Source of the DNA: an uncultured Bacilli bacterium
GTDB taxonomy: Bacteria > Bacillota_I > Bacilli_A > RF39 > UBA660
Length of the DNA: 64,000 bases
Reading direction: 5' to 3'
Assembly (NCBI GenBank): GCA_934086815.1
Contig: CAKOIM010000001.1
Location: forward strand, 78,366-142,365
How positions within the stretch are numbered: position 1 is the stretch's first letter; every line of letters begins with the position of its first letter. Shown here in pieces: positions 13,534 to 46,535 of the stretch. The notes beneath the pieces were generated by a model. It was not told where the DNA came from. It saw only the letters and a program-made list of their open reading frames with translations, and made no database searches. The position numbers and the translations under genes were made by a program.

Positions 13534-13534
13534 A

Positions 13535-26498: not shown

Positions 26499-26527
26499 TT
26501 GGCATTAAAATATTTTTGTGATATAAT
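26499..26527 (+). promoter_or_regulatory. Candidate promoter of the SipW/TasA-like locus
   Basis: TTGGCA (26499-26504), 17-nt spacer, TATAAT (26522-26527) with upstream TG (extended -10). Confidence 0.55.
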
Positions 26528-26552: not shown

Positions 26553-27092
26553 ATGAAAAGAATAATTATTGTTATTTTGACAACATTATATATAATTATT
26601 TCAATAGTTGTTACAACTTTATTACTTCATTACAATGATTATAACGTTACTGTTATTAATAATAATAGTTTAATAAGTTTAAAAAAAGATTATGATGAAT
26701 TAAAAAAAGGTTCTTTAGTTATTGTTGCAAATAAGGAAGTTAAAGTTGGAGATAAGATTTTTTATTATGAAGCTAATAATAATAATATTGGTATAAGTCT
26801 TAAGTCTGTTAAAAAAATTGATGAAATTAATGCAAATGAATATATGTACACACTAGATAATGATAAAGTAATTACTAGGGACTTTATTATAGGTGCCTTA
26901 AATGATGCTAAAGTTTATCCATTTATTGGGAGTGTTTTACTTTTACTCGAATCTAAATGGGGTTTTTTAAGTATCATTATTTTACCAGTAGCTGTTTGTT
27001 TTATTTTAGAAATTTATACACTAATTAAGGAATTTAAACCTAAGAAAAAAAGAAAAATGGGATGTAAAAATGAAAATAGTAAAAATAAATAA
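26553..27092 (+). CDS. SipW-like membrane protein, catalytically degenerate (pseudo-signal-peptidase), paralog of 44275-44808
   Basis: Has SipW topology (N- and C-terminal TM helices). The SGSMEP box is replaced by NNSLISL and the THR(V/I) His box is absent. Clearly alignable with 44275-44808. Confidence 0.55.
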   Translation: MKRIIIVILTTLYIIISIVVTTLLLHYNDYNVTVINNNSLISLKKDYDELKKGSLVIVANKEVKVGDKIFYYEANNNNIGISLKSVKKIDEINANEYMYTLDNDKVITRDFIIGALNDAKVYPFIGSVLLLLESKWGFLSIIILPVAVCFILEIYTLIKEFKPKKKRKMGCKNENSKNK

Positions 27093-27996
27093 ACAAAAAG
27101 CTTTACTGCTGTTATTAGTTTTTGTTTCTATACTATCTTGGGGTTCTTTAATTAAGACTTATGGAAGATACATTTATAATGAACTTAGAGATTATTATTT
27201 TGCAAGTCATAGTTTTTATTTTAATAGTGATAAATTAGATGTTGGTTTTAATAATGAAGAATTAGATAATTACTCAGGTGTTGATCCATATACAATAACT
27301 ATTAATATGAACAGCTATAAAAATAACTTTGTTGCTAGTAGTTCCGATATTGATTACAATATAACTTATAAATGTTCAAATAATGCTACATGTGAAGTTT
27401 CTAAAAGTTCTGGTATTATTTATGCGGCAAGTCATACGGATTCATTTTATGTTACGATTACACCAAAAGAAAATTTAAGCGATGGTGATAAAATTTGGGT
27501 TGAAGTAGAAGCTACATCTATTAGTCCTTACAAAAAAACTTTAAAGGGTAAATTCACTTTAAAGGTAGGTAAGATGGGTCTTGCTTATGAAATAAATGAT
27601 GTTAAGAATAGGGCATATTTTGATGTGCATTTTACTAATACATATGACTTTTATACGGTTAATGAAGCATTTGCTAATCATAATGTGGGTGATAGAATAG
27701 ATATAGAGACGTTTTTAAGTTTAAGTGACATAGATAAAGAAAAATGTTCTTCTGCTGTAATTGAAATTAAGTTTGATCCAAGAGTAGCTGTTTTAGATAT
27801 GACTAATGATGCTTATATCAATAACATTAGTAAAACTACTAGAATTATAAATAATTATGAATATATAGATGGTTTTATATTTAAAGTAGAAGCATTATCT
27901 AGTAAAAGTGTTAGGTTTTATAAAAGTAATGTTAGTAATGATTATACTTATCCATTTAACAATAATAATTCGATAGTAGATGTAATCTATCATTAA
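27070..27996 (+). CDS. Exported protein with SipW-cognate-like N-terminus (308 aa)
   Basis: Signal-anchor LLLLLVFVSILSWGSLIKTYGRYIYNE follows the T-[YF]-[AG]-x-[YF] pattern seen in TasA-type substrates. S/T/N-rich, beta-rich composition. Confidence 0.55.
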   Translation: MKIVKINKQKALLLLLVFVSILSWGSLIKTYGRYIYNELRDYYFASHSFYFNSDKLDVGFNNEELDNYSGVDPYTITINMNSYKNNFVASSSDIDYNITYKCSNNATCEVSKSSGIIYAASHTDSFYVTITPKENLSDGDKIWVEVEATSISPYKKTLKGKFTLKVGKMGLAYEINDVKNRAYFDVHFTNTYDFYTVNEAFANHNVGDRIDIETFLSLSDIDKEKCSSAVIEIKFDPRVAVLDMTNDAYINNISKTTRIINNYEYIDGFIFKVEALSSKSVRFYKSNVSNDYTYPFNNNNSIVDVIYH

Positions 27997-28006: not shown

Positions 28007-28921
28007 ATGAGTTTAAATGTAATGAATACTTATTTAAAATTTAATCGAAGAAGATTAATAGGTTATAGTAAAATTATATTAGAAAAACATTATAATAAAA
28101 ATATTTTTGAAGGCTTATTAGATACATACATTAATGTAAGATACATAGAGTTACCTTCAGGGATAAGTGTTAAATTAATAAATAAGGAACTTGTTAAAAA
28201 AGCCGAAGAGTTAAGTCTTAAACATGATGTTGAAGACATAAAATTAATTCTTACATATTTTCCTTATATATATTATTTAGATGGATTTTTGAATAAAGAT
28301 ATTGAAATTACTATTAATAAAATTAATGACTACAGGAAAAAATATTTAAAGTTAGAGAAACTTGATAATGAATTAAGAAATAATTTAATAAATGATAGAA
28401 AAAGAATTACTAAGTATTTAGATAGTTTTGATAGTAAAGATTTCTATTTAAATTTAAATAAAACTAATATTAAGAATTTATTTAAAACTGAAGTTTTGCA
28501 TGAGATAAAGATACCTAAGTTATATAGTGAATATGCAATTAATAATGTTTATAATCGAGGTATTGTTTTAGAAAATAAATTGTTTATTAATTATTATATG
28601 GTTAGTAAATTAATATTAATTGATGTACTTAATAAAGACTCTAAATATTATATAGTTGATTTTTCTAAAACTTTGATTTTAAAAGAAGATAAGGTAAAAA
28701 GATTATTTAGTATTATTGATAATGATTTAATTAAAGATAGAATAATTCTTAAAGTTAGTGAAAATGATTTTTATGAATACCGAGATAGTTATTTAAAATA
28801 TATAAATGAAGGTTATAAGTTTATTCTTTATTTAAATAAAGAATCTGAATTAAATAATGATGCAATAAGAAGAGTATTTAGCTATATAGAAGATGATACT
28901 TTAATAAAGGAGGTAAAATAA
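28007..28921 (+). CDS. Hypothetical cytoplasmic protein (304 aa), first gene of the McrB-like cassette
   Basis: AGGAGG RBS. No TM segment or known motif. Its stop shares a base with the next ATG. Confidence 0.55.
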   Translation: MSLNVMNTYLKFNRRRLIGYSKIILEKHYNKNIFEGLLDTYINVRYIELPSGISVKLINKELVKKAEELSLKHDVEDIKLILTYFPYIYYLDGFLNKDIEITINKINDYRKKYLKLEKLDNELRNNLINDRKRITKYLDSFDSKDFYLNLNKTNIKNLFKTEVLHEIKIPKLYSEYAINNVYNRGIVLENKLFINYYMVSKLILIDVLNKDSKYYIVDFSKTLILKEDKVKRLFSIIDNDLIKDRIILKVSENDFYEYRDSYLKYINEGYKFILYLNKESELNNDAIRRVFSYIEDDTLIKEVK

Positions 28922-30441
28922 TGGATACATTTTTTAAGTTTTTATTTGAGTTCTTAGATCAATTCTTTAAAGGGTTTGAACTATTTTTTAAAGGTTTATT
29001 TAATGGAGTAACTGAAATATTTAATATTCCTGCCTATATTAAAGTAATTAGATATTATCAAAGTGATTTAAAAGGACCTGAATGGATATTTGTGGCAATA
29101 GCTATATTAGGTGTAATAGTTTTACTAGTAGCAATTATTTTATTTGTTTATTTTATTTTAAGAAAGTATCTTAAGTTTAGAAAAACAATTGTTGAACAAG
29201 AATCTTTACTTGAAGAAGTAGCAACTCTAAATAATGAAGTAGCTAATTTAATTCAAGAAAAACAAAATATACTTGCCATGAAAGTATCAAAACTTGGTCT
29301 TAAGCCAGGGGATAGTGATGTTGAGGATATTCCAGATGCAAATGAAGATGTTATCGGTGAGGGTCAAAGGTTTCCTAAACTTGCAAGTGTTGATGAAGCC
29401 TTTGCAAAATACAAGATACAAAACTATAACAATACTTTTACATTAGAAGAATTAGTCGAGTATTTTAGAAATTTTGCTGCTTCTAAATTAAGACTTTATT
29501 ATTCAACTGAAATGATTAGATTATTTATTTCAGCCTTAGCAAGTACTAAGTTAATTATTTTACAAGGTATTTCTGGTACAGGTAAAACTTCCTTAGCATA
29601 TGCTTGGGGAAAGTTTTTAAATCATGATTCATGCGTAGCATCTGTTCAACCCTCATGGAGAGATAGAACTGAATTATTCGGATACTTTAATGAGTTTACC
29701 AAAAAGTTTAATGAAACCGAAGTATTAAGAGAATTATATCAAGCTGGATTTACGGATGATGTATATACTGTAATTCTCGATGAAATGAATATTTCTCGTG
29801 TAGAATATTATTTTGCAGAAATGTTATCTATACTTGAAATGCCCAATAAAGATGAGTGGATAATTGAACTTGTATCTAGTGCATGGAAAAGTGATCCAAA
29901 ACATATAATCGGAGGTAAAATAAAAATTCCTGCGAATGTGTGGTACATAGGAACGATTAATAACGATGACTCTACTTATATGGTAACAGATAAGGTATAC
30001 GATAGAGCAATGCCAATTGATATTAATGATAAAGGAAAAGCTTTTGAACCAATTGATACGGAAGCAATGAATTTAAATTATTCTTATTTAGATAATTTAT
30101 TTCAAACGGCAATGGAACAAAATCAAATATCTAAAGAAACTTTAGATAAAATTGAAGATATGGATAATTATGTAATTAAACATTTTAGAATTGCTTTTGG
30201 GAACAGAATTGTTGCCCATATGAAAAAGTTTGTGCCAGTATATGTGGCGTGTGGTGGCGATGAAATTTCTGGGGTAGATTATTTTATTGCCCGAAAAATT
30301 TTAAGAAAGTTTGAACAATTAAATGTTTCATACATTAGGGATGAAATTGATGGATATGTAGATTATTTAAATAAAACATTTGGTAAAGATAAAATGAAAG
30401 AATGTATTGAATATTTACTTCGTTTAAAGAAATTAACATAA
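28921..30441 (+). CDS. Membrane-anchored, coiled-coil McrB-like AAA+ (GTPase-type) NTPase
   Basis: TM helix WIFVAIAILGVIVLLVAIILFVYFIL, coiled coil EQESLLEEVATLNNEVANLIQEKQNILAMK, Walker A GISGTGKTS, McrB-type box VILDEMNISRVEYYFAEMLSILE, and NVWYIGTINNDDSTYMVTDKVYDRAMPIDIN. Confidence 0.75.
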   Translation: MDTFFKFLFEFLDQFFKGFELFFKGLFNGVTEIFNIPAYIKVIRYYQSDLKGPEWIFVAIAILGVIVLLVAIILFVYFILRKYLKFRKTIVEQESLLEEVATLNNEVANLIQEKQNILAMKVSKLGLKPGDSDVEDIPDANEDVIGEGQRFPKLASVDEAFAKYKIQNYNNTFTLEELVEYFRNFAASKLRLYYSTEMIRLFISALASTKLIILQGISGTGKTSLAYAWGKFLNHDSCVASVQPSWRDRTELFGYFNEFTKKFNETEVLRELYQAGFTDDVYTVILDEMNISRVEYYFAEMLSILEMPNKDEWIIELVSSAWKSDPKHIIGGKIKIPANVWYIGTINNDDSTYMVTDKVYDRAMPIDINDKGKAFEPIDTEAMNLNYSYLDNLFQTAMEQNQISKETLDKIEDMDNYVIKHFRIAFGNRIVAHMKKFVPVYVACGGDEISGVDYFIARKILRKFEQLNVSYIRDEIDGYVDYLNKTFGKDKMKECIEYLLRLKKLT

Positions 30442-30451
30442 GGAGGTATAC

Positions 30452-31552
30452 ATGGAAATATTTGATTTATATCAAAAAAATGATGAAGTTGAGTTTGAAC
30501 ATTTTAATAAAAAATTAGACTCGCGTTTGCATGTATATAAAGACTATGAAAAGGTTGAATACGACTTTGAATGGTTAGATATTATGGAAGAAACAATAAG
30601 GTATTTAGATAATATCTTAAGAAATCCAAATAAGTTTATTATTAATGAGGAAGATGTAATTAAAATTGAACTTGCAAAGCGAGTTACAGTTGAAAGTATT
30701 AAACATTTATCAAGAAATACTAATTTAATTCAAGATTATAATAAAAAAACTGGTGATGTTAGACCTTCAAAAATACTTAATATTTCAAAGGAAGAAAGTT
30801 TTGAAACATATGAAAATAAGTTTATTTATTCTTTAATACAAAATATGAAGTTTTATATTGAAAGAAAGAAAAATAATATGCAAGCCGGAGGGTCTTATAA
30901 AAACGATAAAAAGTTAGAATATAGTGCATCTACTTCGATGGGTAAAGAAAAAGTTGATATGAATTTTACTATTAATTCGAAAATACAAGATAATAAAAAT
31001 AAAGATATGGAAATAATTAATAAAAGAATTGAAGATTTAGAGTTACATATTAAAGACTTGTGTACTTCGGATGTCTATAAAGCAATAGATAAAAAACATA
31101 TCTCTTTAGTTACGTCTCCGATTAAAAAAACTAATGTTATAATTAAAAATGTTAACTTTCAATATGCTTTAAGATTATGGAATTATATGCAAGATCATAC
31201 GGATGATGATGTTAAGAATGAAAAAAATAAAAAGGATTATTATGATAATGATACTTTAAAGAAAATGGCTGATGAAACATTTTTAATTAATTATTTAATA
31301 TCGAAAACTCTAGATGAAGATGAATCACAAGATGTAATAGAAAAAGAAGAATTAAGTAAAAAGGTAGTTAATAATATGCTTGAGAATCTACTTAGTTTTA
31401 ACAATATTCCTTTAGAAGAATTACAAAATTTAATCAAAGATCAATATGAAGTTGTTAAGTATAAGGAAGTTGTTTCAGATAAATATATTGAGAATTTATT
31501 TAAAAGTAATATTTCTAAATACTTAGAAAGCATTGATAAAATAAAAATATAA
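30452..31552 (+). CDS. Partner protein of the McrB-like NTPase (McrC N-terminal/DUF2357-like?), no nuclease motif seen
   Basis: AGGAGG RBS 10 nt after the NTPase gene. The ETYENKFIYSLIQNMKFYI motif resembles the N-terminal region of McrC-type partners from memory. The C-terminal half is coiled-coil-like, with no PD-(D/E)xK visible by eye. Confidence 0.4.
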   Translation: MEIFDLYQKNDEVEFEHFNKKLDSRLHVYKDYEKVEYDFEWLDIMEETIRYLDNILRNPNKFIINEEDVIKIELAKRVTVESIKHLSRNTNLIQDYNKKTGDVRPSKILNISKEESFETYENKFIYSLIQNMKFYIERKKNNMQAGGSYKNDKKLEYSASTSMGKEKVDMNFTINSKIQDNKNKDMEIINKRIEDLELHIKDLCTSDVYKAIDKKHISLVTSPIKKTNVIIKNVNFQYALRLWNYMQDHTDDDVKNEKNKKDYYDNDTLKKMADETFLINYLISKTLDEDESQDVIEKEELSKKVVNNMLENLLSFNNIPLEELQNLIKDQYEVVKYKEVVSDKYIENLFKSNISKYLESIDKIKI

Positions 31553-31565: not shown

Positions 31566-32141
31566 ATGAAAAATAAAAATATAGTAAAAATAATATTAGG
31601 GATAATAAAAAGTATTGCAACATTTTTTATTGTATGTGTTTTTAGTATAATATTTTTACAAAGAGTTAGTAATAATTCAATTAATTTAGCTGGTTTTAGT
31701 ATTTATACTGTTGTAACTGAAAGTATGTATCCTAAATATAAAGTTTATGATATGATTTTAGTAAAAAGTGTTGATACTAAAAGTATAAATGTTCATGATG
31801 ATGTTGTATATAAAGGAGAAAAGTCTGATTTTCAAGGTAAAATAGTTACACATAGAGTGGAAAAAATTGATAATAATAATGGTGTTTTAACCTTTACTAC
31901 GAAGGGGATTAATAATGATATTGAAGACCCTTTAGTAAATGAAAATCAAATTATGGGAAAAGTTGTTCATAAGCTTGTATTATTAAGTTTAATTAGTAAA
32001 GTTATAAATAATACATATGGATTTTATTTTTTAATATTTGTACCTTTAGTAATTGTAGTATTTTTAGAAGTTATGGAAACAATTGAAGAAAAAAAGAAAT
32101 TAAAAAAGGTTTTAGAAAATGAAAAAGAAGAAGGAGAATAA
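31566..32141 (+). CDS. sipW: SipW-type (archaeal/ER-type) signal peptidase I, catalytic residues present
   Basis: VVTESMYPKYKVYDMILVK (Ser box), IVTHRVEKI (His box), TKGINNDIED, and both N- and C-terminal TM helices as in B. subtilis SipW. Confidence 0.75.
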   Translation: MKNKNIVKIILGIIKSIATFFIVCVFSIIFLQRVSNNSINLAGFSIYTVVTESMYPKYKVYDMILVKSVDTKSINVHDDVVYKGEKSDFQGKIVTHRVEKIDNNNGVLTFTTKGINNDIEDPLVNENQIMGKVVHKLVLLSLISKVINNTYGFYFLIFVPLVIVVFLEVMETIEEKKKLKKVLENEKEEGE

Positions 32142-32742
32142 CTTATTAATATTTATTAAAATAATAAGAAAAAGAGTTAAGCTTAGTACTTTAATAATGC
32201 TTATCATTACATTTTCTTCTTCTACTTTTGCATGGTTTATATATGCTACTAAAGTTGATAGTGGTATAACTGCTCACGTTAAAGCTTGGAATGTCTTATT
32301 TGAAGTAGGCGAAGATGAAATTGTTGAAAATATGCATTTTGATGTTTCTGATATTTATCCCGGTATGATGACTTATACTGATAATGTATCTGTTAAAAAT
32401 AAAGGTGAAACTAAAGCAGAATTATCTTATGAAATAGTTTCTTATACTATTTTTGGAGTTAAGTACGAAGTAGGGAATAACGGAGTTTTATCTAGTGAAG
32501 ATTTAAAACAAAGTTTGTTAAATGACTACCCATTTAAAACAGCTATTTCTCTATCTAATAATATTATTAGTCCAAATTCAAGTGAATCATTTTCTTTAGT
32601 TGTATCGTGGGCTTATGAATCTGGGGATGATGATAAAGATACTTTATGGGGAATAAAAGCTTATGATTTTCATGAGCTTTACCCTGATTTACCAAGTATT
32701 TCTATAGAATTAAAAGTTACTGCGACTCAAAAAAATAACTAA
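32119..32742 (+). CDS. TasA/camelysin-like exported protein
   Basis: SipW-cognate-like N-terminus FSSSTFAWFIYAT. DIYPGMMTYTDNVSVKNKGETKAELSYEI resembles the TasA LKPGD...F.F.N.GSL block. Confidence 0.65.
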   Translation: MKKKKENNLLIFIKIIRKRVKLSTLIMLIITFSSSTFAWFIYATKVDSGITAHVKAWNVLFEVGEDEIVENMHFDVSDIYPGMMTYTDNVSVKNKGETKAELSYEIVSYTIFGVKYEVGNNGVLSSEDLKQSLLNDYPFKTAISLSNNIISPNSSESFSLVVSWAYESGDDDKDTLWGIKAYDFHELYPDLPSISIELKVTATQKNN

Positions 32743-32764
32743 AAAAATGCCAAAAGGCATTTTT
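32743..32764. terminator. Bidirectional terminator between convergent TasA-like genes
   Basis: AAAAATGCC-aaaa-GGCATTTTT. Confidence 0.7.
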
Positions 32765-32766: not shown

Positions 32767-33354
32767 TTAATTTGGTATTTGTATAAATTGAATATTTAAC
32801 TTTAATTTAGCTTGTTCATTGCTAAAGGAAGCATTTGTGTCTTCTTCGTTTGTCATTTTACTATTATTTGAATCATCCCATTTTACATAAAGACGAATAT
32901 TCGTTAAATTAATGTTATCTTTTTTATAAATGTTATCAGTAATATTTTCGCCATTGTTAATTGCAATGTTTTCACTACCATTAACTGAGTAACTCGTTAC
33001 AATTAAATCAGAAACTGAACTAGTTGCATCTACATTTGGTGTTATAGTATATGAAAATGATACATCAACTTGCGAAGAATCAATAATTAAATCAATGTAA
33101 CCCTCACTTGTCGGAGCAATTACTCCGGCTTTTATATGTTCTGTTCCAAGAAAAGTGGGAGTAAGTAAAGCACTTGTGCTTGAGTTGTTTCTTACATCTT
33201 GATTATTTACTAATATATGCCATCTAGCAACAGAAATATTGGTTTTCCCATCTAAATTAGTATTGTACTTTGCATAAGTTTCATTAATTGTAGAAAAACA
33301 AAAAAACAAAGATATAATTGCTATTAACAAGGTCATTTTTCGAACTATATTCAT
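32767..33354 (-). CDS. TasA/camelysin-like exported protein (inverted orientation), paralog of 44805-45392
   Basis: Signal peptide plus INETYAKYNTNL. ARWHILVNN...GVIAPTSEGYIDLIID..VDVSFSYTI aligns with AKFNLLVNN...GKIAPGVSGYFELVLD..SDVSIYYEV. Confidence 0.65.
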   Translation of the reverse strand: MNIVRKMTLLIAIISLFFCFSTINETYAKYNTNLDGKTNISVARWHILVNNQDVRNNSSTSALLTPTFLGTEHIKAGVIAPTSEGYIDLIIDSSQVDVSFSYTITPNVDATSSVSDLIVTSYSVNGSENIAINNGENITDNIYKKDNINLTNIRLYVKWDDSNNSKMTNEEDTNASFSNEQAKLKLNIQFIQIPN

Positions 33355-33476
33355 TTATCATCACCTTATCTTCAAAAAATTATATCATAAAAAAGTGTCT
33401 AGTACAATGTATAATGTTTAAAATTCGTTGAACACCTAAATTCATTTATGTTATCCTTAGATTAAGGAGTAGTATT

Positions 33477-34178
33477 ATGGCTAGGGAAGTAATTGTAACA
33501 GCAGATGCAATCAAAAGAAGAAAAAAAATGTTTTTGAAAACGAAAATTATAATTGGTTTATTACTAATTATATTTTTACTTATATTTGCAATTTTAGGAA
33601 TAGTTTTTAATGTAAATAAGTTTACAATTACTTTATCTGATAAACTACAAAATGAAAAAGGTATAATATTATATTCTGATATAAATAATAAAAGTCATCA
33701 AAGAAAATTATTTGCAAATGCACTTAATGATATGGATAACATTACATATGATTGGATTCCTAAAAATGTTCATACTTCATCTACCGGAGGAAGCCACAAT
33801 GGTGATAATTACATTGCTTATACTTTTTATGTTGAAAATGAAGGAGAATCTAGTGTTAATTATTGGTATTCTATAATTATTGATGATGTTATAAAAAGAG
33901 TTGATGAGGCTGTTCGGGTAATTGTATTTTTAAACGATGAAGAAAAAGTATATGCAAAAATTAATAAAGATACAGCTAAGGCTGAAAAAGATACGGAAGC
34001 CTTTTATAAAGATGATGTCGTAGTTTTAAAATCTCGAAATGATTTTAAAGTCGGAGATATTGATAAATTTACCATTGTTATTTATCTTGAGGGAGAAGAT
34101 CCGGATTGTTTAAATGATATAATTGGTGGCGAAATAAAAATGCACATGGAGATAAGAGAGGAGCATTTAAATGAATAA
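33477..34178 (+). CDS. Signal-anchored protein sharing the C-terminal LEG[EQ]DxDC motif
   Basis: K-rich N-terminus and TM helix IIIGLLLIIFLLIFAILGIVF. C-terminus FTIVIYLEGEDPDCLNDIIGGEI is related to the C-termini of 34171-35160 and 46536-47594. Confidence 0.6.
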   Translation: MAREVIVTADAIKRRKKMFLKTKIIIGLLLIIFLLIFAILGIVFNVNKFTITLSDKLQNEKGIILYSDINNKSHQRKLFANALNDMDNITYDWIPKNVHTSSTGGSHNGDNYIAYTFYVENEGESSVNYWYSIIIDDVIKRVDEAVRVIVFLNDEEKVYAKINKDTAKAEKDTEAFYKDDVVVLKSRNDFKVGDIDKFTIVIYLEGEDPDCLNDIIGGEIKMHMEIREEHLNE

Positions 34179-35160
34179 AAAACATAAAAAACAACAAAAA
34201 GAATTGAAAAAAATATCTTTGTTATTACTTATTTTATTTACGGGTGTCTTTTTAGCTAGTTCAACTTATGCTTGGTTTACTGTAAATCGAATTGCATATG
34301 TTGATTCTCTTCAAGTTCGCGTTGAAGCAGAAGGGGGAATGGAAATTTCTAGTGATGCCAAAACTTTTAAATCATATATAACAAGTGAAGATTTAATCGA
34401 AGCTGCAAATACTTATAAATCTAGTATAAATCAACTCCCCTTAAAATTAGAACCGGTTTCTACGGCCGGAGGGCTTGAAAATGGTAAATTAATGTTGTAT
34501 TATGGTAGTGTTACAAATAATATTAAGGGTGATTACGTATTAAATGCAACTCGTGAAATTGAAAAACGTAATAATAATGATGGAATGTTCATAGCTTTTG
34601 ATATTTTCTTAAAAAGTAACAGAGATACTAAATTATATTTAACACCAGAATCTGGGGCTAGATATATTGGCGATAAAATACCGGGGATACAAAACGCAAC
34701 GAGAATTGCCTTTATAGTTTTAGGAAATACGGTATCTAATGCAAGTCCTGAATTTATTCAAAATTTAAATAATGCAACACCAAATGATGTATATATATGG
34801 GAACCTAATTATGATGTTCATAATGATTATGGTATTAAACATGCCCAAGACGTGTATGGAATTACCGTTGGTAAAGAAAATAATCAACCAGTTTTATATG
34901 ATGGAATTTCTGGTGAACTAAAAAACATTTTTGTTGATAAAGCAAATCAAGCTTACTATCCAAATTATTTTAAAAGAGTTAATGTTAATTATTTAACACC
35001 TGCTAATTTCATTAATAATAAAGAAATATTTTCTATTAATAGTGGTATTACCAAAATAAGAATATATGCTTGGCTTGAAGGACAAGATGTTGATTGCGAA
35101 AATAATTCTGCGGTTGGCAATCTAGATTTTAAATTTCAATTTAGTGTAAATCCATCATAA
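34171..35160 (+). CDS. Exported TasA-signal-type protein (329 aa), paralog of 46536-47594
   Basis: LASSTYAWFTVNR, NATRIAFIVLGN, IWEPNYDVH and IRIYAWLEGQDVDCENN are all shared with the 352-aa paralog. Confidence 0.65.
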   Translation: MNKKHKKQQKELKKISLLLLILFTGVFLASSTYAWFTVNRIAYVDSLQVRVEAEGGMEISSDAKTFKSYITSEDLIEAANTYKSSINQLPLKLEPVSTAGGLENGKLMLYYGSVTNNIKGDYVLNATREIEKRNNNDGMFIAFDIFLKSNRDTKLYLTPESGARYIGDKIPGIQNATRIAFIVLGNTVSNASPEFIQNLNNATPNDVYIWEPNYDVHNDYGIKHAQDVYGITVGKENNQPVLYDGISGELKNIFVDKANQAYYPNYFKRVNVNYLTPANFINNKEIFSINSGITKIRIYAWLEGQDVDCENNSAVGNLDFKFQFSVNPS

Positions 35161-35174
35161 TGAAGGAGTTTTAT

Positions 35175-38100
35175 ATGAAAGTAAAAATATTTCAAAACAA
35201 AAATATCAAATTACATTTAGTTTTAATAAGTATATGTATTGTATATTTATGTTTTAACATTTTTACTTTCTTTTTTACTTTTGGAGAAGATATAACTAGA
35301 ATAAGTTCTAATACTATTTCTTCTGGAAGAAGTGGAGTAACTGATAATGTTGTTACCGTAGATAATGAAGAATCTGACTATTATTATTACATGGGACAAA
35401 ACTATACAGATTCAGATGGAACTATGCCTACGAAAACAAATAAAAATATATATAATGATTCAAACTTAATAAAAGCAAAAATTACATATTTAAGTGATGA
35501 TATAAATTCTAATTTTAAGGGGTATGTTTCAAATACGGAATTACAAGATACCTATGTTTATTATAATGTTTATCCTATAAAAGATGGGTATGTAACTATT
35601 GAACTTATTGATAATCCTTTTGTTAATCGACCAAATGATAAAGGATTTAATGGATGGACAACCAATTATCAAGGGGCAAAAATTGTATATGACGATACAT
35701 ATTATACAAGATATGTAAAAGTACCCGTATACACGGATGTTACAGAAATAGATATTACACTTCATGCTAGTTGGCTTGATGCTAATGTTGAGAATATAAC
35801 TAATTCTTGGAGCAATATAAATAAGTTCGATTCAAAAGTTATGAAAAAAGTAAGTGCAACATATACGGAAGTTGTTTATGGTGACTTTAATATGGTGGGG
35901 TATTATAAACCTGTAAAAATTCAAAACTGGGGTAGTTGCCGAGGATATTATAATCAAAATGGAAGATATCAAAATGGCTGGTGTACATGTCGTAATTATG
36001 ATGGATGTACTTATTATGATTACATAGAAAATGAAAACTATCAAGAAGGTGAGGTATATTATAAATTAGTAAATAATAATATGACTTTGGTAGATCCTTC
36101 TACATTAAATAGACCAATAATATCTTCGGAAGAAAAAGTTAATTCTAATATTAATAGTGATGCTAATATGGCAGCATATTATAAAAAGGTAACTATTTCA
36201 CGTTATGCTAGTATTGAGGGTTTATATAATGAAAATGGCGTTTTACAAACAGGGACGTGTAATTCATCTAGTGGGTGCGTTTTATATGAACTTATACAAT
36301 ATTATGATAACCAAGGTAATGAAAATAAGTATCAGGAAGCAAATGAATATTATTATTTGCCTACAAGAGATACAAATATTGCTGTATTAAAAAACTCTAT
36401 TTCTAGTCGATGGTCAAGTGTTAATAAACCTTTTACTGTAACAAGTTTGCATAATGGAGTTGATTATAGAACTAATGCTACATGGAGCTTAAGAACAGGA
36501 GCATGGAGTGGCATAAGTGTGCAGGCTTATAATGATTTAACAATAGAAAATGTTAAAATTAATTATGGGAGTTCTCTAACTAATTCTAAATCTGATACGC
36601 CAGGAGATAGTGATTCTATAGGTAGTTTTTACGGTAATTGGCATAATGTAAAGCTAGGGCGAGGAATTGTTCAAAATGGATCTAGTGCATCGTTTGATTC
36701 AATATTGGGTGGTTCTAATTCTACAACTGGCTCAAGAATTAATGAAACAAAATATAAATTTATAGTAGAATCTGGATTTTATAATAGTATTTCTTTAACT
36801 AATGGGGGAATAAACCAAAATTCATCAAGTTATATTAAAGCTAAAGGAGTTTATGGAAATGATTATGATAAAGTTTTAAAAAATAATGATAACTTTGTAG
36901 TTTCATATGCTGCTAGTGGTTCATGGGGTGGTGTTTATTATACAATTGATCCGGTCGATATTGGTTTTGATTTAACTGTTAAAAGTGGTACATATGGAAA
37001 AAATAAATATGATGCATATGCAGGAATTTATATAGGTGGCCGTGGATGGGGAACCCATTACACATCAAGAAGAGTTAAATATGAAGGTGGATATACTTAT
37101 AATTTAATTGGTGGTCCTATTACAGGATCAAATAGAAGCAATTATAATGATTCTTACATGTATATAACAGGTGGCGAAATTGACATGGTTATTGGTGGCG
37201 CAGGTCAAACAGCTACATATGGAAATCGTATTATTCAAATGACTGGGGGAATGATAAACTATAGTATATTTGGTGGATCAAATGGTTATGAATCTGGTAA
37301 TGGTGATGGTACGGTTAATGGTGGTTCTTATATTTACGTTGGTGGAAAATCTATAGTTGGAAAAAGTGAATATGTTAATAATAAGCAGGAATTATATGGA
37401 GCTACCGCAGGTAATGTTTTTGGTATTGGAAATGGAAACAGTTCATATGATACGATTGGTTCAAGTGATTCATCCGTCATAGTAATAAATGATGAAGCTC
37501 AGATAAACAATGATGTTTATGGTGGTGGTAATTTTTCATCAGTTGGTGTTAGTAGTACTAAATCATCAACTACAACAGATATAGAAGTTTTAGGTGGTAC
37601 AATCTATGGTTCTTTATATGGGGGTGGGAATAAAAACGGAAGTGGTTCATCAAATAAAAATGCAACTATTACAATTAATATGTATGCTGGTGATATTTAT
37701 GGTGGTTTATATGGTGGGGCCAATAAAAAAGGAACAATTTATGGAACTTCAAACATAAATGTATATGGAGGAACAATTCATACATCTATTTATGGCGGAG
37801 GTCTTGGTGGATACTTAGATTCATCTTCTCCAGGTACGTATGTAGGTAAAGATGTCAATATAGTTGTGGGAAGTGATGACTTCGATACTATTCCCGTTAT
37901 TAATTCTATTTATGGAGGAAGTTCTTTTGGTTCTGTAAATGGAACATCAAGTAATGTAACAGGAACAAACTATAATACGAAAGTTACAATTAATAAAGGC
38001 AAAATTAATAATGTGTTTGGTGGGGGTGAAGGTAGTGATACATACACTCCGAATGTTTATGGAAATACATTAGTTACTATAAATAATGGGGAAATAACAA

Positions 38101-41100
38101 ATGTATTCGGAGCTAATGATGCATCTGGTATGCCAAGTAAGTCGGTAAAAGTTATTGTAAATAATGGTAAAATCGAAAATGTATATGGGGGAGGAAATAA
38201 AACAAGTCTTACTACTAGTGATGTCTCTATAAATGGTGGTAATATTAAAAATATATATGGAGGTTCAAATATAATTGGTGATGTTACAACATCTAATATT
38301 TCTGTTAATGGTGGTGATCTTACTAATGTATATGGTGGTAATAATATAGGTGGAAAGACTGCTACTAGTAATGTTACCTTAAATAATGGAACAATTTCAA
38401 ATGCCTATGGCGGAGGGAATTTAGCACCTACTACTAATACTTTTATAACTGTAACAAGTAATGCGGTTGTAACAAATGTTTATGGTGGTGGTGAAAGTGC
38501 TGATGTAAGTGATGAAACTCACGTATCTTTATTAAATGGATATGTAACAAACGCCTATGGAGGTTCAAATATTACTGGCTCTGTTTTAAAATCTTCTATC
38601 GTTGCTACTGGGGGAAAAACTTCATATATATATGGAGGTAATAATGCCGGAGGAAGTACCATATCGACAAACGTTTTAATTAATGGAATAAATGTAAAAG
38701 AAGTATATGGTGGAGGTAATCAAGCTAATTCAACAACTAGTAATGTTACTGTTAAAAATGCATCTAAAGCAATAGATTATTGTTTTGGTGGAGGAAGAGA
38801 AGCCAATGTGGATACAACTAACATTTTAGTAAGTGGTGGAAGTATTAAAGAGGTATACGGTGGTTCAAATAAATCTGGTACTGTAATAAATTCAAATGTA
38901 AATATAGCATCAGCTTTAGAAGATTCTCCAGAGGTTTTAGCAAATGTAACTTATACTTTAGAAAATGTTACTTGGCAAAGTGATGAGTATGAAACATTAG
39001 CTAAAATTAAAGTTGAGTTAGTTAATAATACGAGTGATGAAATTACCCAATATAATGGTTCACTATACATTCCCGATTCTAAGTTGTTTACGAATTATTC
39101 ACAAACGGCAATTACTTTAGAAGACTATACATATTCATTTAATGAAAATAATACTTATTATGGAACAAATCCTATTCCTGCCAATTCATCTATTTCTTTT
39201 GAAATTGAAGTTTTATCTTCATCGTCTATTAATGATTTTGGCTTAACTCATAAGTTCGAAGGTCGAAGTGGAACAAATACATATATAGATAAAACTGGTG
39301 AAAAAATAATGTATGTTTATGGTGGTAATAATGTAGGTGGAAAGACTATAAATTCCAATGTATTAGTAAATGATGGGAATATAACCAATGTATATGGTGG
39401 AGGAAATGAAGCTATAACTGATAATCCAAAAGTAAAAATAATTGGTGGAAATATTTCTAAGAATATATATGGCGGAGGAAACCAAGCGATTGTAAGCAAT
39501 GATACAAATGTGTCTGTAACTGGTGGTGTGATAGGTGGCTCTGTTTATGGTGGAGGTAATGGTCAGACTGCAGTAGTTACTAAAAATACATTAGTAAATA
39601 TCTCTGATAAAGCAAACATTACAAAACATGTATTTGGCGGAGGAAATGCCGCAGCAACTGGATTAAGTCAAAATGATAATTCAAAATCTATAGTTAATAT
39701 TGCTGGTGGAATTATTAAAGGCTCTGTATATGGAGGGGCTAATACATCTGTTGTTTATGGTGAAACTTTTGTAAATATTGGTGAAAATGTTATAAGTGAT
39801 AAAACATTAAAAAAATCAGATATTGATATATCTGGTACAATCTTTGGTGGTGGAGAAGCAAATGAATCTGGTAGTGAAATATACGATTATTCATTTATAA
39901 GTGTTACTGGTGGAATTAACATAAAAATAGATGGCAAAGGTTATGATAATTTTGCCATGCATGGTTCAATATTTGGCTCTGGTAATGCATCAAGTACTAG
40001 AGGATATAGTTATATAAATATTGATAATTATGGTACGTTTGATAAATATCAAAAAAATATTTCTATTCAAAGAGCAGATACGGTTTCAATTAGTAATAGT
40101 GCTATTGAACTTTATGGTGCCACGGATAGAACAAATGAATATTCAGATGTTTTATTTTCCATAAGTCGTGTTAAAACTTTAAAACTTAAAAATAATTCAA
40201 CATTATTTTTACAAACAGGTTCAAATTTACTTGAAAACTTTAATAGTTTAGTTGATATTAATGGAGAAGAAGTATTAGCTAGTGTCGATATAAGTGATGA
40301 TGGTACAGTAAATAAAAATGTTAATAATAGATTATATATGCTCGAAGGAAAGAATTTAAATATAGCTACTAATGAGCAAGTAACTCAATATGGTAAAGTA
40401 TCTGGGATGACATTTTTCGGTATGTATAAATTAGATCATAGTAAAAATGCTATTACGGCTTTATATAATCCCAAATATGATCAAGGAAGTACTGTTTTAA
40501 ATAATGATGCTTATGCATTTATGAGTGGTTCTTATGTACTTGGACTTCATCAAAAAAATCATGATATAAAAGTTAATGGTTTTTATTCTAATTATTTAAC
40601 TGAAGATAATTCAAATAATATAAGTGTTCAATATATAAAGCCAATACCAGAAGATTCTAACTATTATATGTGGGTTATTGGAGAACAAGTAGCATCATAT
40701 GAAATAACTTTAACTGCATCAAAGTATTTAACCCTTGGTACTGTTGAACTTCCTCTTAGAAATAACTATAATGCCAATAGTACATTTTCTATAGTAGGTT
40801 TTAATTATGATAGCCTAGATTCTTCCGTATCTTTTATCGATGAAGCTGATGTTCCAAGAGTTGCTAGCAATCCTGAAGATGCAGATAAAGTAATGGGACT
40901 AGGTGTTAAAAATGGGTCAGGTTTTATTACTAAAGGATCATTATCTTTCCTAACGGGAACAAATGATAATTTAAAAGGTACTAAAGATTTTGAAAGAGAA
41001 AACACAACAAGTGTACCAAGTTTAGTATTCTATTTATATCATTCAAAGAATTTACAAACATCTGGAAATATGGGTTCTGTAATTGTATCAATGTTAGTTA

Positions 41101-42593
41101 CAACAAAAATAGATGATTTAAATAGTGAAGTTGAAAGAGTAAATGTTATAATCAATTTAAATAGAGCTTTATATAACACTAACGAATATGAAGCCACAAT
41201 TGCTCCTTCAAAACATTATGAAATGTTTGCAACAAGTGATGTTCGTATTACTAATAAAGGATCATTTTCAACTTATTATTCATTATATATGCCAAGTGAT
41301 GTTACTCCATATAAAGATGGATATCATCGTAGTTTAGTTTCTACATATCTTTTCCCTGAAGGTACAAAAATTACTATGATTGACTTAGTTACTAAAACTG
41401 TTCCTGAATATTACTATTATGTTGTTACTAGTGATGATGTAGTAAATGGTGAAGAAGAATATCAAAGGTATAAAGAAGTCTCGTACGATTTTTCTAAATT
41501 TATTAAAATGGGTAGTACTAGCCTAGATAATTTATATAGTGATGAAAGAAGTAATAATATATATTATAATGATGTAGAAAAGTATACTCACGAAGAATTT
41601 ATTTTTATAGTTGATTTTAGTGGAACTCAAATAAATGATAATCAAACTAATAAAAGTTTATTAATTGAACTTAGAAATAAAGATAATAGAACAGTTACAT
41701 CTGTTCTTGGTGCTAGTCAATCGTCAATGTTTTATGATGTGTATTCTGATGTATCTGCAAAAATAGAACTTGATGCTACTTTAAATAATACAGATATTTA
41801 TCCAGGGAACCAAACATCTTTAAATATTATTACTAATTTTGTAAAGCCAATATTTAATAATGTCGAAGTTAATGATACAACATTTGATGATCAAAAGCTT
41901 GGTATAAAACTTACAATATTTGATGCTAATAATAATGTTGTTTCCGGAGCATCATTACTTGGTTTATCATTTGAATTAAATGGTAAAACTTATTATCCTA
42001 GAATTGATGGAACTACACGTATAAACATAGCATCTAGTATCGCTAATGTATCTAGTAATATTAAAATTAATACTCCGGAATCTTTTGCCCCAGGTTCGTA
42101 TAGATTAGTAATAGAATCCTTTGGTTCTCCGGATGGAATTTATTATGGCCTACATTCTTCCGCAGAAACAGAACTTAATTTTAAAGTTTTAAACAATAGC
42201 TATGGTTTAACTATTGATATAAGGGATGAAATGTTGGTTATTGATAAAAATACTGGTTTTAATTTATTAGGTAATAATAGTTTTGTTTACATGTTGAAAC
42301 ATTCATCAGTTTTAGAAAATCCAAGTATCAGAGTTAGTTTATATCGAAGAAATTATGATACACCATATTCGTTAAACTATGATATAGTGGACATAAAAGA
42401 TTTTTTCAATTATAATTATACTGATACCAATATAGATAAAGAATATATTTTATTGGATAAAGCATTAAGTGAAAATAATATATTTATGTCTATTAAAGAT
42501 AATTTAAAATCTGGTACATATCGCTTAACTTTTACAATATATGATAATAATGAGTATATAGGCAATATTTATAAGTATTTACTTATTAAGTAA
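35175..42593 (+). CDS. Giant (~2,472 aa) signal-anchored beta-helix-repeat surface protein (adhesin-like)
   Basis: N-terminal TM (LHLVLISICIVYLCFNIFTFFFTFG). Dozens of ~19-23-aa repeats x[VI]YGG[GS]N...N[VI] lie at nt ~37100-38900 and ~39310-40000, split by a non-repeat insert. No LPxTG at the C-terminus. Start placed at ATG 35175 behind AAGGAG (35163-35168); the track start 35160 is also possible. Confidence 0.8.
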   Translation: MKVKIFQNKNIKLHLVLISICIVYLCFNIFTFFFTFGEDITRISSNTISSGRSGVTDNVVTVDNEESDYYYYMGQNYTDSDGTMPTKTNKNIYNDSNLIKAKITYLSDDINSNFKGYVSNTELQDTYVYYNVYPIKDGYVTIELIDNPFVNRPNDKGFNGWTTNYQGAKIVYDDTYYTRYVKVPVYTDVTEIDITLHASWLDANVENITNSWSNINKFDSKVMKKVSATYTEVVYGDFNMVGYYKPVKIQNWGSCRGYYNQNGRYQNGWCTCRNYDGCTYYDYIENENYQEGEVYYKLVNNNMTLVDPSTLNRPIISSEEKVNSNINSDANMAAYYKKVTISRYASIEGLYNENGVLQTGTCNSSSGCVLYELIQYYDNQGNENKYQEANEYYYLPTRDTNIAVLKNSISSRWSSVNKPFTVTSLHNGVDYRTNATWSLRTGAWSGISVQAYNDLTIENVKINYGSSLTNSKSDTPGDSDSIGSFYGNWHNVKLGRGIVQNGSSASFDSILGGSNSTTGSRINETKYKFIVESGFYNSISLTNGGINQNSSSYIKAKGVYGNDYDKVLKNNDNFVVSYAASGSWGGVYYTIDPVDIGFDLTVKSGTYGKNKYDAYAGIYIGGRGWGTHYTSRRVKYEGGYTYNLIGGPITGSNRSNYNDSYMYITGGEIDMVIGGAGQTATYGNRIIQMTGGMINYSIFGGSNGYESGNGDGTVNGGSYIYVGGKSIVGKSEYVNNKQELYGATAGNVFGIGNGNSSYDTIGSSDSSVIVINDEAQINNDVYGGGNFSSVGVSSTKSSTTTDIEVLGGTIYGSLYGGGNKNGSGSSNKNATITINMYAGDIYGGLYGGANKKGTIYGTSNINVYGGTIHTSIYGGGLGGYLDSSSPGTYVGKDVNIVVGSDDFDTIPVINSIYGGSSFGSVNGTSSNVTGTNYNTKVTINKGKINNVFGGGEGSDTYTPNVYGNTLVTINNGEITNVFGANDASGMPSKSVKVIVNNGKIENVYGGGNKTSLTTSDVSINGGNIKNIYGGSNIIGDVTTSNISVNGGDLTNVYGGNNIGGKTATSNVTLNNGTISNAYGGGNLAPTTNTFITVTSNAVVTNVYGGGESADVSDETHVSLLNGYVTNAYGGSNITGSVLKSSIVATGGKTSYIYGGNNAGGSTISTNVLINGINVKEVYGGGNQANSTTSNVTVKNASKAIDYCFGGGREANVDTTNILVSGGSIKEVYGGSNKSGTVINSNVNIASALEDSPEVLANVTYTLENVTWQSDEYETLAKIKVELVNNTSDEITQYNGSLYIPDSKLFTNYSQTAITLEDYTYSFNENNTYYGTNPIPANSSISFEIEVLSSSSINDFGLTHKFEGRSGTNTYIDKTGEKIMYVYGGNNVGGKTINSNVLVNDGNITNVYGGGNEAITDNPKVKIIGGNISKNIYGGGNQAIVSNDTNVSVTGGVIGGSVYGGGNGQTAVVTKNTLVNISDKANITKHVFGGGNAAATGLSQNDNSKSIVNIAGGIIKGSVYGGANTSVVYGETFVNIGENVISDKTLKKSDIDISGTIFGGGEANESGSEIYDYSFISVTGGINIKIDGKGYDNFAMHGSIFGSGNASSTRGYSYINIDNYGTFDKYQKNISIQRADTVSISNSAIELYGATDRTNEYSDVLFSISRVKTLKLKNNSTLFLQTGSNLLENFNSLVDINGEEVLASVDISDDGTVNKNVNNRLYMLEGKNLNIATNEQVTQYGKVSGMTFFGMYKLDHSKNAITALYNPKYDQGSTVLNNDAYAFMSGSYVLGLHQKNHDIKVNGFYSNYLTEDNSNNISVQYIKPIPEDSNYYMWVIGEQVASYEITLTASKYLTLGTVELPLRNNYNANSTFSIVGFNYDSLDSSVSFIDEADVPRVASNPEDADKVMGLGVKNGSGFITKGSLSFLTGTNDNLKGTKDFERENTTSVPSLVFYLYHSKNLQTSGNMGSVIVSMLVTTKIDDLNSEVERVNVIINLNRALYNTNEYEATIAPSKHYEMFATSDVRITNKGSFSTYYSLYMPSDVTPYKDGYHRSLVSTYLFPEGTKITMIDLVTKTVPEYYYYVVTSDDVVNGEEEYQRYKEVSYDFSKFIKMGSTSLDNLYSDERSNNIYYNDVEKYTHEEFIFIVDFSGTQINDNQTNKSLLIELRNKDNRTVTSVLGASQSSMFYDVYSDVSAKIELDATLNNTDIYPGNQTSLNIITNFVKPIFNNVEVNDTTFDDQKLGIKLTIFDANNNVVSGASLLGLSFELNGKTYYPRIDGTTRINIASSIANVSSNIKINTPESFAPGSYRLVIESFGSPDGIYYGLHSSAETELNFKVLNNSYGLTIDIRDEMLVIDKNTGFNLLGNNSFVYMLKHSSVLENPSIRVSLYRRNYDTPYSLNYDIVDIKDFFNYNYTDTNIDKEYILLDKALSENNIFMSIKDNLKSGTYRLTFTIYDNNEYIGNIYKYLLIK

Positions 42594-42617
42594 GGGCCTT
42601 TGTGAGGATGTGATAAA

Positions 42618-42737
42618 ATGAATTTAGAAAATGTAAATAAATTAAGTCATAAAGAATTACTCGAAGCTATTAAAATTATTAATAGCTTTCTTGAGTATTT
42701 AGAAAATGTCTTAACTGAGGGAGATAATAATGATTGA
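42618..42737 (+). CDS. Candidate 39-aa helical small protein
   Basis: MNLENVNKLSHKELLEAIKIINSFLEYLENVLTEGDNND. GAGGATG RBS-like sequence upstream. The stop overlaps the start of the next gene (42730). Confidence 0.3.
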   Translation: MNLENVNKLSHKELLEAIKIINSFLEYLENVLTEGDNND

Positions 42738-44226: not shown

Positions 44227-44274
44227 AAATACTTGATAATGTGTGTTATAATTTAGGCAAGGTGGTAGTAGAAA

Positions 44275-44808
44275 ATGAAAATAGTTAAAACAATATTTAG
44301 CATACTTATTATTCCCTATGTAATTATTGCAATATTTACAACTGCATGTTTAATGAATTATAATAAGTATGGTATAACAGAGTTTGGAAATAAATCCTTG
44401 ATTATAGTAGAAGATAATAGTTTAGAGCCAACATTTAAAAAAGGAAACTTATTAGTTGTTAAAAGAAATGAAAATTTAGAAAGTGTTAAACCTGGAGATT
44501 CAATATTCTTTTATAATAACTATAATAATGAAGTTAGTGTTAGTTTGAGTAATGTATTAAAAAGAACTAAAGTAAATGATAAAGAGTACACATATACTAT
44601 AGATGGAAATTATGATGTATCTAGTGAATATTATATTGGTAGTGTAAATGATACTAGTATATATTCGTTTTGGGGAACACTTTTAGGTGTATTTACTTCA
44701 AGAATTGGTTATTTATTAATATTTGTATTACCAATTTTATGTTTCTTCTTATATGAAATTTATGCTGTTATTAGAGAAGTAAAAGAATATAAGGAAGAAA
44801 AACAATGA
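44275..44808 (+). CDS. SipW-like membrane protein, degenerate (Ser box partly kept, His box lost)
   Basis: IVEDNSLEPTFKKGNLLVVK compares with SipW SGSMEP.FK.G.L.LVK. No THR(V/I) motif. N- and C-terminal TM helices. Paralog of 26553-27092. Confidence 0.55.
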   Translation: MKIVKTIFSILIIPYVIIAIFTTACLMNYNKYGITEFGNKSLIIVEDNSLEPTFKKGNLLVVKRNENLESVKPGDSIFFYNNYNNEVSVSLSNVLKRTKVNDKEYTYTIDGNYDVSSEYYIGSVNDTSIYSFWGTLLGVFTSRIGYLLIFVLPILCFFLYEIYAVIREVKEYKEEKQ

Positions 44809-46445: not shown

Positions 46446-46460
46446 ATTGTAAGAATTTTG

Positions 46461-46489: not shown

Positions 46490-46535
46490 AAATTCATATG
46501 ATAGAGAGAGTAATCTATAGTTAAGGAGTGAAGTC

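Follow-up and report, generated by a model that had tools for sequence, protein, structure and literature searches.

The window analysed here is a stretch of 64,000 nucleotides from an uncultured Bacilli bacterium (contig CAKOIM010000001.1, positions 78,366 to 142,365), and at positions 28007-31552 it holds a cassette of three genes that encode the proteins A304, B506 and C366. The explanation that fits best, with a probability of about 0.65, is that this cassette is a CoCoPALM-type module, i.e., a GTPase machine derived from McrBC that is devoid of DNA-binding and nuclease parts and belongs to a gene locus for SipW-dependent surface fibres. The chance that the module takes part in fibre biogenesis, as a GTP-driven regulator or motor, is about even. 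A fixed role in the locus is favoured because the linkage to SipW genes is conserved between genomes, B506 evolves under strong constraint, the flanks are composed of housekeeping genes, and A304 is in some lineages fused to a SipW-type peptidase.

Class membership

The class was named CoCoPALM by Bell et al. (2024; PMC11090510, section 7) in one paragraph, with its analysis deferred to a future paper, and is described there as an NxD GTPase fused to an FtsB-like unit of a transmembrane (TM) segment and a coiled coil. The locus in the window is assigned to this class because every stated feature that was tested is present, i.e., an NxD McrB-like GTPase with an N-terminal TM segment and coiled coil; an adjacent McrC homolog with a DUF2357 domain and a coiled coil (heptads at residues 176-213), the two genes being adjacent in 78 of 80 loci; and an association with the signal-peptidase family, represented by four SipW-like paralogs in the window, two of them in the same operon. 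Here and below, locus counts refer to the best 80 species-level genomes of a survey that used one genome per species and in which at least 597 confirmed relatives are listed. In the original prediction the cassette was regarded as a possible novel module, but its class already carries a name (PMC11090510). Relative to the paragraph that describes CoCoPALM, what is new is the A304 subunit, the SipW fusion, the presence of pseudo-peptidases among the paralogs and the size of the locus of secreted paralogs. A literature search found neither follow-up or experimental work on CoCoPALM nor a paper linking McrB with SipW, and CoCoPALM is not mentioned in the eLife supplementary text files.

The three genes of the cassette

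The three genes, all on the plus strand, are:

28007..28921, plus strand: A304 gene, 304 residues; predicted N-terminal six-helix domain and C-terminal beta/alpha domain
28921..30441, plus strand: B506 gene, 506 residues; predicted membrane-anchored McrB-like GTPase of the NxD clade
30452..31552, plus strand: C366 gene, 366 residues; predicted McrC-like protein, DUF2357 only

The motif AGGAGG is found 6-9 nucleotides before each start, and the A304 and B506 genes overlap in the A of TAATG at 28921. The earlier description of three coupled genes, each with an AGGAGG ribosome-binding site and with one base at 28921 shared by the first two, was reproduced exactly in all open reading frame (ORF) coordinates. 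On four metagenome contigs from the human gut, including Hadza samples, independent gene callers arrived at the same three products.

B506, a predicted membrane-anchored GTPase

The elements recognised in B506 are, from the N-terminus:

28921..29028, plus strand: Phe-rich amphipathic helix, residues 1-36
29083..29160, plus strand: single predicted TM helix, residues 55-80 (19-residue Kyte-Doolittle mean 3.5)
29191..29292, plus strand: short heptad coiled coil, about residues 90-124 (about 5 heptads)
29368..30438, plus strand: GTPase core, residues 150-506
29566-29592, plus strand: Walker A, GISGTGKTS, residues 216-224
29770-29790, plus strand: Walker B, VILDEMN, residues 284-290
29950-29976, plus strand: G-T-x-N-x-D-[DEQ]-S-T signature, GTINNDDST, residues 344-352
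29989-30009, plus strand: DKVYDRA, residues 357-363

Against E. coli McrB (PDB 6hz4), B506 gives E=3.9e-4 in a single-sequence phmmer search and E=9.5e-6 with a family profile, and the alignment spans Walker A, Walker B and the sensor region. An alignment of 14 diverse homologs of full length shows residues G344, T345, N347, D349, S351 and T352 to be invariant, while position 350 is D, E or Q. With N347 and D349 fixed and the residue at 350 variable, the signature is read as NxD followed by an acidic residue, not as NxxD. By its motifs, B506 is an McrB-like GTPase of the NxD clade, in which the Walker A, Walker B and sensor residues are intact. The McrB-type AAA+ core of the original prediction is thereby confirmed, the quoted motifs being present and the McrB match in the PDB significant; the NxxD element assigned to it is replaced by NxD in the 14-sequence alignment. 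The claim that this is the sole NTPase of the locus also agrees with the data, as no other P-loop NTPase was detected across the locus at 26.5-47.6 kb.

In PADLOC, the model PDC-M26A matches the core of B506 only (E=7.9e-37; residues 169-319 against profile positions 291-442 of 724), and no PADLOC model matched A304 or C366. Membership in the candidate system PDC-M26 was rejected because the match is a cross-match of the GTPase core, with the other subunits unmatched. Pfam matches to nSTAND3, PhoH, TsaE and AAA_22 were likewise discarded as sub-threshold cross-matches of the P-loop.

The N-terminal part of B506 is of a different character. Residues 1-36 include 12 Phe and have a maximum hydrophobic moment of 0.63, compared with 0.34 in shuffled sequences, a value that is reached by 0.05% of the shuffles. 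The TM helix is directly followed by the segment RKYLKFRK, and because of these charges the positive-inside rule would place the C-terminal part of the protein in the cytoplasm. A Phe-rich amphipathic N-terminus, a single TM helix and hence a membrane-tethered GTPase had been proposed earlier, in agreement with the hydrophobic moment, the Kyte-Doolittle values and the one TM segment found here; the heptad coiled coil proposed at the same time is present, but it is short.

The TM helix and the coiled coil together constitute a putative FtsB/FtsL-like unit, to which FtsL-type hidden Markov models (HMMs) match at residues 62-116 below threshold (E about 0.02), i.e., the homology to FtsB/FtsL is at a sub-threshold level only. 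This unit could, in principle, target a B506 ring to the divisome or the poles, such that the module would be a cell-division or envelope-positioning factor that either positions the fibre products or has a division role unrelated to the fibre. Apart from the weak FtsL-type matches, such a function finds support in the term "FtsB-like" used for the N-terminal unit by Bell et al. (PMC11090510) and in S. aureus PcdA, an McrB-family AAA+ protein that is reported to have been co-opted for division-plane selection (PMC10602043). Yet it is very improbable. The FtsL matches remain below threshold, and the orientation is reversed, i.e., the FtsB coiled coil is found outside the cell, while that of B506 would be cytoplasmic together with the GTPase, because it is placed after the positive-inside face. 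Furthermore, the genes conserved around it encode signal peptidases and secreted paralogs rather than division proteins.

C366, a predicted McrC-like partner

The Pfam family DUF2357, which is equated with the N-terminal domain of McrC by Bell et al. (PMC11090510), matches C366 at residues 26-151 (nucleotides 30527-30904) with E=4.5e-11 and 42.9 bits (cut-off 23.3), and the motif TYENKFIY (residues 119-126) lies inside this span. After the domain come the heptad stretch (residues 176-213) and a C-terminal part that is helical. In an alignment of 22 sequences, the segment 40-135 is nearly invariant and the C-terminal third is the least conserved. Searches of A304, B506 and C366 with Pfam, NCBIfam, PADLOC and PDB profiles, and with Foldseek on the models, found no nuclease of the PD-(D/E)xK, HNH, HEPN or PLD type, and the 22-sequence alignment of C366 contains no conserved D...(D/E)xK pattern. 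The C366 profile matched neither McrC nor anything else in the PDB, and Foldseek with the C366 model returned only noise (TolC, CapZ; E>0.03). Judged from the family match, C366 is an McrC-like protein that retains of McrC only the N-terminal (DUF2357) domain, with no detectable nuclease. This is in line with the original prediction, in which the partner with the TYENKFIY motif was held to be McrC-like and nuclease-free and a clear nuclease was named as evidence to the contrary; none was found.

Because the pair descends from McrB and McrC, and because residues 250-366 of C366 and a 498-residue neighbour are devoid of an assigned fold, the cassette might be a restriction system of the classical or CoCoNuT-like kind whose nuclease is hidden in C366, A304 or the product of a neighbouring gene. 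The data speak strongly against such a system, which is highly improbable: the searches listed above yielded no nuclease signal in the three proteins and no conserved catalytic pattern in C366, the DNA-binding N-terminal domain of McrB is absent and a TM anchor is found in its place, and the C-terminal third of C366 is the part that is least conserved.

A304, a third subunit linked to SipW

The predicted model of A304 (AlphaFold2, AF2) is confident, with a mean predicted local distance difference test score (pLDDT) of 90.2, and contains a six-helix N-terminal domain (residues 5-139) and a beta/alpha C-terminal domain (residues 146-304). In a Foldseek search against the PDB, the top 37 matches to this model are all EAL domains, with a probability of 0.89-1.00 (mostly 1.00), but with a best E value of only 1.3e-3 and TM-scores of 0.28-0.44. 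They include the degenerate EAL proteins FimX, LapD and YdiV, as well as Bd1971. At the level of sequence this likeness is not seen. Pfam EAL is matched by none of 19 members of the A304 family, an hhalign comparison of the family alignment with E. coli PdeH, PdeL, PdeK and RflP gives a probability of 0.07%, i.e., no match, the EAL motifs ExLxR, N, ExxE, DDFGTG and KxD have no sequence-level support in the family, and a PDB profile search with A304 returned nothing. A phmmer match to a multi-ubiquitin protein (E=0.032) was rejected as chance. The C-terminal domain of A304 may, as the model suggests, have a degenerate EAL-like fold in which the catalytic motifs are lost; we consider this a lead, not a result. 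No GGDEF motif was found in the window. A structural comparison of the 304- and 366-residue proteins had been proposed with the original prediction; it was informative for A304, in the form of these EAL-like matches, and not for C366.

A304 has few sequence relatives (66) and no family match. An iterated HMM search found the A304 family in 57 of the 80 loci, and in 55 of them the gene lies directly upstream of that for the GTPase. In Clostridia-type loci the family has no match, except for a partial one (locus L058). In at least 12 genomes (loci L039-L042, L047, L049-L051, L055, L061, L066 and L076), a SipW-A304 fusion of 646-756 residues is found, in which an active-type SipW peptidase (about residues 10-170) is followed by an acidic linker and a C-terminal A304-family domain. 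The fusion ORF ends at the start of the GTPase gene, and the loci with the fusion stand together in the GTPase tree as a single contiguous block. Because SipW ends in a TM helix and a charged tail, the fused A304 domain, and by extension A304 itself, would be located in the cytoplasm. From its distribution and these gene fusions, A304 appears as a conserved third subunit that in some lineages is joined to the C-terminus of a SipW peptidase.

Conservation of the locus

All of the best 80 relatives of B506 match over residues 1-506 with 51-75% identity, and they are found in uncultured gut Bacilli (labelled Tenericutes, Erysipelotrichaceae and CAG:567) and in Clostridia (Acutalibacteraceae, Ruminococcus and Oscillospiraceae). 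In a protein collection, B506 has more than 8000 close relatives, the top 120 of which are at least 74% identical; a search at E<=1e-3 gave 8359 clusters (50% identity), and about 14 of the best 150 have the full-length architecture with the TM helix. A SipW-like gene is found at a distance of at most 5.1 kb in 76 of the 80 loci (median 1.1 kb), and proteins of the substrate families are found in 73. Among the 35 closest loci, B506 is the most conserved gene product, with a median identity of 69% compared with 29-47% for all others. A neighbour-joining tree of the GTPases groups the loci by architecture.

The upstream flank of the locus in the window is composed of hrcA, grpE, dnaK, tldD, pmbA and dnaJ, and the downstream flank of a radical-SAM gene, recD2 and mreC. 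The composition is uniform across the region, with no GC anomaly, and no mobile or defence genes were detected near the locus. Viral contigs in IMG/VR contain only three distant relatives of B506 (26-33% identity), and a phage origin was rejected on this ground.

The cassette is not an inserted defence module, as its linkage to SipW is conserved across at least 76 species-level genomes. The suggestion in the original prediction that the module had "inserted here" is contradicted by this synteny and by a GTPase tree that follows locus architecture. The survey proposed at the same time, i.e., of whether homologous triplets co-occur with sipW genes or are found in defence islands unlinked to them, placed the triplets with SipW genes.

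A defence function could nevertheless be associated with the fibre itself. In such an abortive-infection system the ring would sense a phage at or through the fibre, by its use as a receptor, by envelope stress or by injected nucleic acid, and would then kill or arrest the cell; the effector would be a pore of six TM and six Phe-rich amphipathic helices that replaces the lost nuclease. The closest relatives of the GTPase core are in the NxD clade of CoCoNuT-like systems, for which defence is predicted (PMC11090510), and the core has the PDC-M26A match described above. A nuclease-less McrC would indeed need another effector, and a strongly amphipathic helix beside a TM helix is a common design of membrane effectors. 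Against this stand the fixed operonic position within a conserved locus in 76 of 80 species, the slow evolution of B506, which is the slowest of all genes of the locus, the housekeeping flanks without detected mobile or defence genes, the lack of PADLOC matches to C366 and A304, the scarcity of relatives on viral contigs, and the A304-SipW fusion, which points to the secretion machinery. We consider this alternative unlikely.

Some related loci differ in their gene content. In Clostridia-type loci, the McrC-like protein has 677-724 residues, i.e., twice the length of C366 (L044 at 11569-13743; also L043, L045, L053, L056, L058, L060 and others), with no Pfam domain at E<=0.001, and the gene directly upstream of that for the GTPase encodes a SipW-like paralog, usually of the p177 type described below. 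In locus L078 (3625-7466, 8931-14291), genes for a DDE transposase and for the reverse transcriptase of a group II intron are found upstream, and a 556-residue ORF follows. In the window, the heat-shock operon is interrupted by a 165-residue ORF (20299-20796) between grpE and dnaK and by the tldD/pmbA pair (22662-25290) between dnaK and dnaJ.

Signal peptidases and secreted paralogs around the cassette

The genes and signals that surround the cassette are:

26418-26433: terminator-like hairpin 3' of dnaJ, ahead of the promoter candidate
26499..26527, plus strand: promoter candidate, the best sigma-70-like one of the region, TTGGCA-17-TATAAT with TG extension (consensus match only)
26553..27092, plus strand: sip1, SipW-like, without the catalytic Ser-Met and His; probable pseudo-peptidase
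27070..27996, plus strand: 308-residue secreted/anchored protein, signal anchor then KTYGRY; 23-nucleotide overlap with sip1
31566..32141, plus strand: sip2, active-type SipW/ER-type signal peptidase I (NCBIfam TIGR02228, E=6.1e-20)
32119..32742, plus strand: tas207, 207-residue secreted paralog, SSTFAWF signal motif; 23-nucleotide overlap with sip2; last gene of the 7-gene unit
32743..32764: bidirectional terminator-like hairpin closing the sip1...tas207 unit
32767..47594: rest of the conserved fibre locus
32767-33354, minus strand: secreted paralog
33477-34178, 34171-35160, 44805-45392, 45879-46445 and 46536-47594: further secreted paralogs
35160-42593: 2477-residue repeat protein
42730-44226: 498-residue cytoplasmic protein
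44275-44808: degenerate SipW paralog (p177)
45389-45898: active-type SipW paralog (p169)

Between the promoter candidate and the hairpin at 32743-32764 there are seven tightly packed genes, i.e., sip1, the gene of the 308-residue protein (with homologs in 41 loci), A304, B506, C366, sip2 and the gene of the 207-residue protein. The cassette is part of this one predicted transcription unit, together with two SipW paralogs and two secreted paralogs.

Matches to Peptidase_S24/S26 were found in the two downstream SipW-like genes (44275-44808 and 45389-45898), and cross-matches between family HMMs show that all four peptidases belong to one superfamily. The sip2 and p169 families retain the catalytic Ser-Met and His without exception, and the sip1 and p177 families have lost both. 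The C-terminus of Sip2 consists of a TM helix with a charged tail. Seven of the small secreted proteins also form one superfamily by HMM cross-matches, while the 308-residue protein shows no cross-match. The SipW-dependent signal peptide model TIGR04088 matches the 352-residue paralog at 46536-47594 with 23.8 bits (cut-off 19) and 8 of 24 members of its family (p352), and in the other secreted paralogs the motif T-[YF]-A-x-[FY] is found after the hydrophobic core. Profiles of two families of these paralogs gave no PDB match, whether to TasA, camelysin, AbpA or another protein, and the Pfam scan of the proteins gave no match to Peptidase_M73.

Each of the four SipW-like genes overlaps the next gene, which encodes a secreted paralog, by 23, 23, 4 and 20 nucleotides, respectively. 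These overlaps suggest cognate pairs of peptidase and substrate. The minus-strand paralog at 32767-33354 converges on the 7-gene unit and shares with it the bidirectional hairpin at 32743-32764; its orientation is kept in about 45 related loci. An invertible element around this gene was rejected, as there are no notable flanking inverted repeats.

In the 2477-residue protein, a hydrophobic N-terminal segment is combined with long arrays of YGG-x-N and GG-x-N repeats. It has homologs in many related loci and gave no Pfam match; it may be a beta-helical adhesin or a tip protein. The 498-residue protein is rich in Lys and Asn, has no evident signal peptide or family match, and is found beside the giant protein in 19 related loci.

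Comparison with known systems

E. coli McrBC (PDB 6hz4, 6ut6 and 7vsr) shares with the module an AAA+ GTPase core that contains Walker A, Walker B and the sensor Asn, and the DUF2357-type N-terminal domain of McrC. It differs in that its signature is NxxD instead of NxD, its N-terminal domain binds DNA where B506 has the TM anchor and coiled coil, and its McrC carries a PD-(D/E)xK nuclease, of which none was found here; moreover, the cassette is embedded in a secretion/fibre operon. The CoCoNuT systems (CnuB/CnuC) are closer in that they belong to the NxD GTPase branch, have coiled coils fused to both the B and C components and often contain an McrC without an active nuclease. In contrast to the module described here, they are soluble, with long coiled coils, and are always encoded close to HEPN or other nucleases, helicases and RNA-binding domains. 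No nuclease, helicase or RNA-binding partner of the CoCoNuT type was found among the scanned proteins, which cover nearly all genes at 18.8-54.4 kb.

On the side of the fibre, the closest counterparts are the B. subtilis tapA-sipW-tasA and C. perfringens sipW-bsaA operons, where an ER-type SipW is encoded beside substrates with the T-[YF]-A-x-F motif (TIGR04088). These operons are, however, without an NTPase. What sets the locus in the window apart from them is its four SipW paralogs, two of which are degenerate, a set of about eight secreted paralogs without detectable TasA similarity, the 2477-residue protein and the McrBC-like module.

A possible parallel for A304 is FimX, a degenerate EAL protein by which the biogenesis of type IV pili is regulated in a c-di-GMP-dependent manner, in a pathway with the hexameric NTPase PilB. 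FimX structures (PDB 4fou and related) are among the best matches to the A304 model, and the likeness extends to the association of a degenerate EAL-like protein with a pilus or fibre machine. In A304, in contrast, there is no EAL homology at the sequence level, the barrel seems to be incomplete and the catalytic motifs are missing. PcdA is, in turn, alike in that an McrB-family NTPase has moved to a cell-biological, non-defence role, but it is a soluble protein with EVE domains that acts together with FtsZ and DivIVA, and neither an McrC partner nor a TM anchor is mentioned in the abstract of its description (PMC10602043).

Proposed mechanism

McrBC complexes that have been solved are hexameric GTPases in which McrC resides in the pore and stimulates hydrolysis (PDB 6ut6, 6hz4 and 7vsr). 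By analogy with these complexes, six B506 subunits would form a ring under the membrane, held by six TM helices, and the C366 segment 40-135 would enter the pore of the ring and stimulate GTP hydrolysis. A304 would bridge this ring to the cytoplasmic tail of the SipW peptidase platform, as the fusion and the positive-inside rule suggest, and its EAL-like fold might serve as a regulatory input, for which FimX offers a possible parallel. Rather than the cutting of nucleic acids, GTP hydrolysis would gate or drive the processing of SipW-type precursors, their release or their polymerisation into fibres.

A more far-reaching form of this proposal, which we put forward tentatively and consider doubtful, is that B506, C366 and A304 together constitute the cytoplasmic engine of an unrecognised, nucleotide-powered assembly of SipW-class fibres in Gram-positive gut bacteria. 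In such an engine the EAL-like adaptor would dock the hexameric ring to a platform in which active signal peptidases and pseudo-peptidases are combined, and the ring would control the ordered cleavage and polymerisation of several pilin-like paralogs and the giant tip protein.

Several points weigh against a CoCoPALM-type module that acts in fibre biogenesis. Because the secreted paralogs match, in the two family profiles searched, neither TasA nor another protein in the PDB, the word "fibre" is based on the SipW-type signal peptides and the paralog families. Both the formation of a fibre and its need for the GTPase are predicted from genes alone, and TasA assembly in B. subtilis is not known to need a cytoplasmic NTPase. 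In four of the 80 loci (L069, L074, L078 and L079), no SipW-like gene is found within 10 kb of the triplet. Outside this clade, the close relatives of the GTPase core are all regarded as defence systems. As to the partners, the EAL-like likeness of A304 is seen with Foldseek but not with Pfam or hhalign, and the predicted model of C366 is only moderate (pLDDT 68), such that its likeness to McrC derives from the DUF2357 sequence match. Of the two roles considered in the original prediction, the assembly or export motor remains the better one, while the inserted defence module is unsupported.

Implications

McrBC is known as a textbook restriction enzyme. Here, a motor of the McrBC type, in which no nucleic-acid-processing parts were detected, is found under strong constraint in a predicted cell-surface fibre locus. 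At least 80 species-level genomes, from uncultured Bacilli and Clostridia of the human and animal gut, contain its full-length architecture, and at least 597 relatives are listed. If the GTPase drives or gates assembly, the module would represent a new NTP-dependent route to Gram-positive surface fibres and an example of how defence machines are recycled. If it were, in addition, the cytoplasmic engine outlined above, it would join sortase pili, type IV pili and passive TasA assembly as a fourth kind of fibre machinery in Gram-positive bacteria, and would be the second documented exaptation of McrB to cell biology. The SipW-A304 fusion, which is absent from the paragraph in which CoCoPALM was published, offers a testable map in which the SipW tail is followed by A304, the GTPase ring and the McrC-like plug. 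The class is uncharacterised yet very widespread in gut bacteria, and the third subunit, the fusion and the pseudo-peptidases make a specific mechanism testable.

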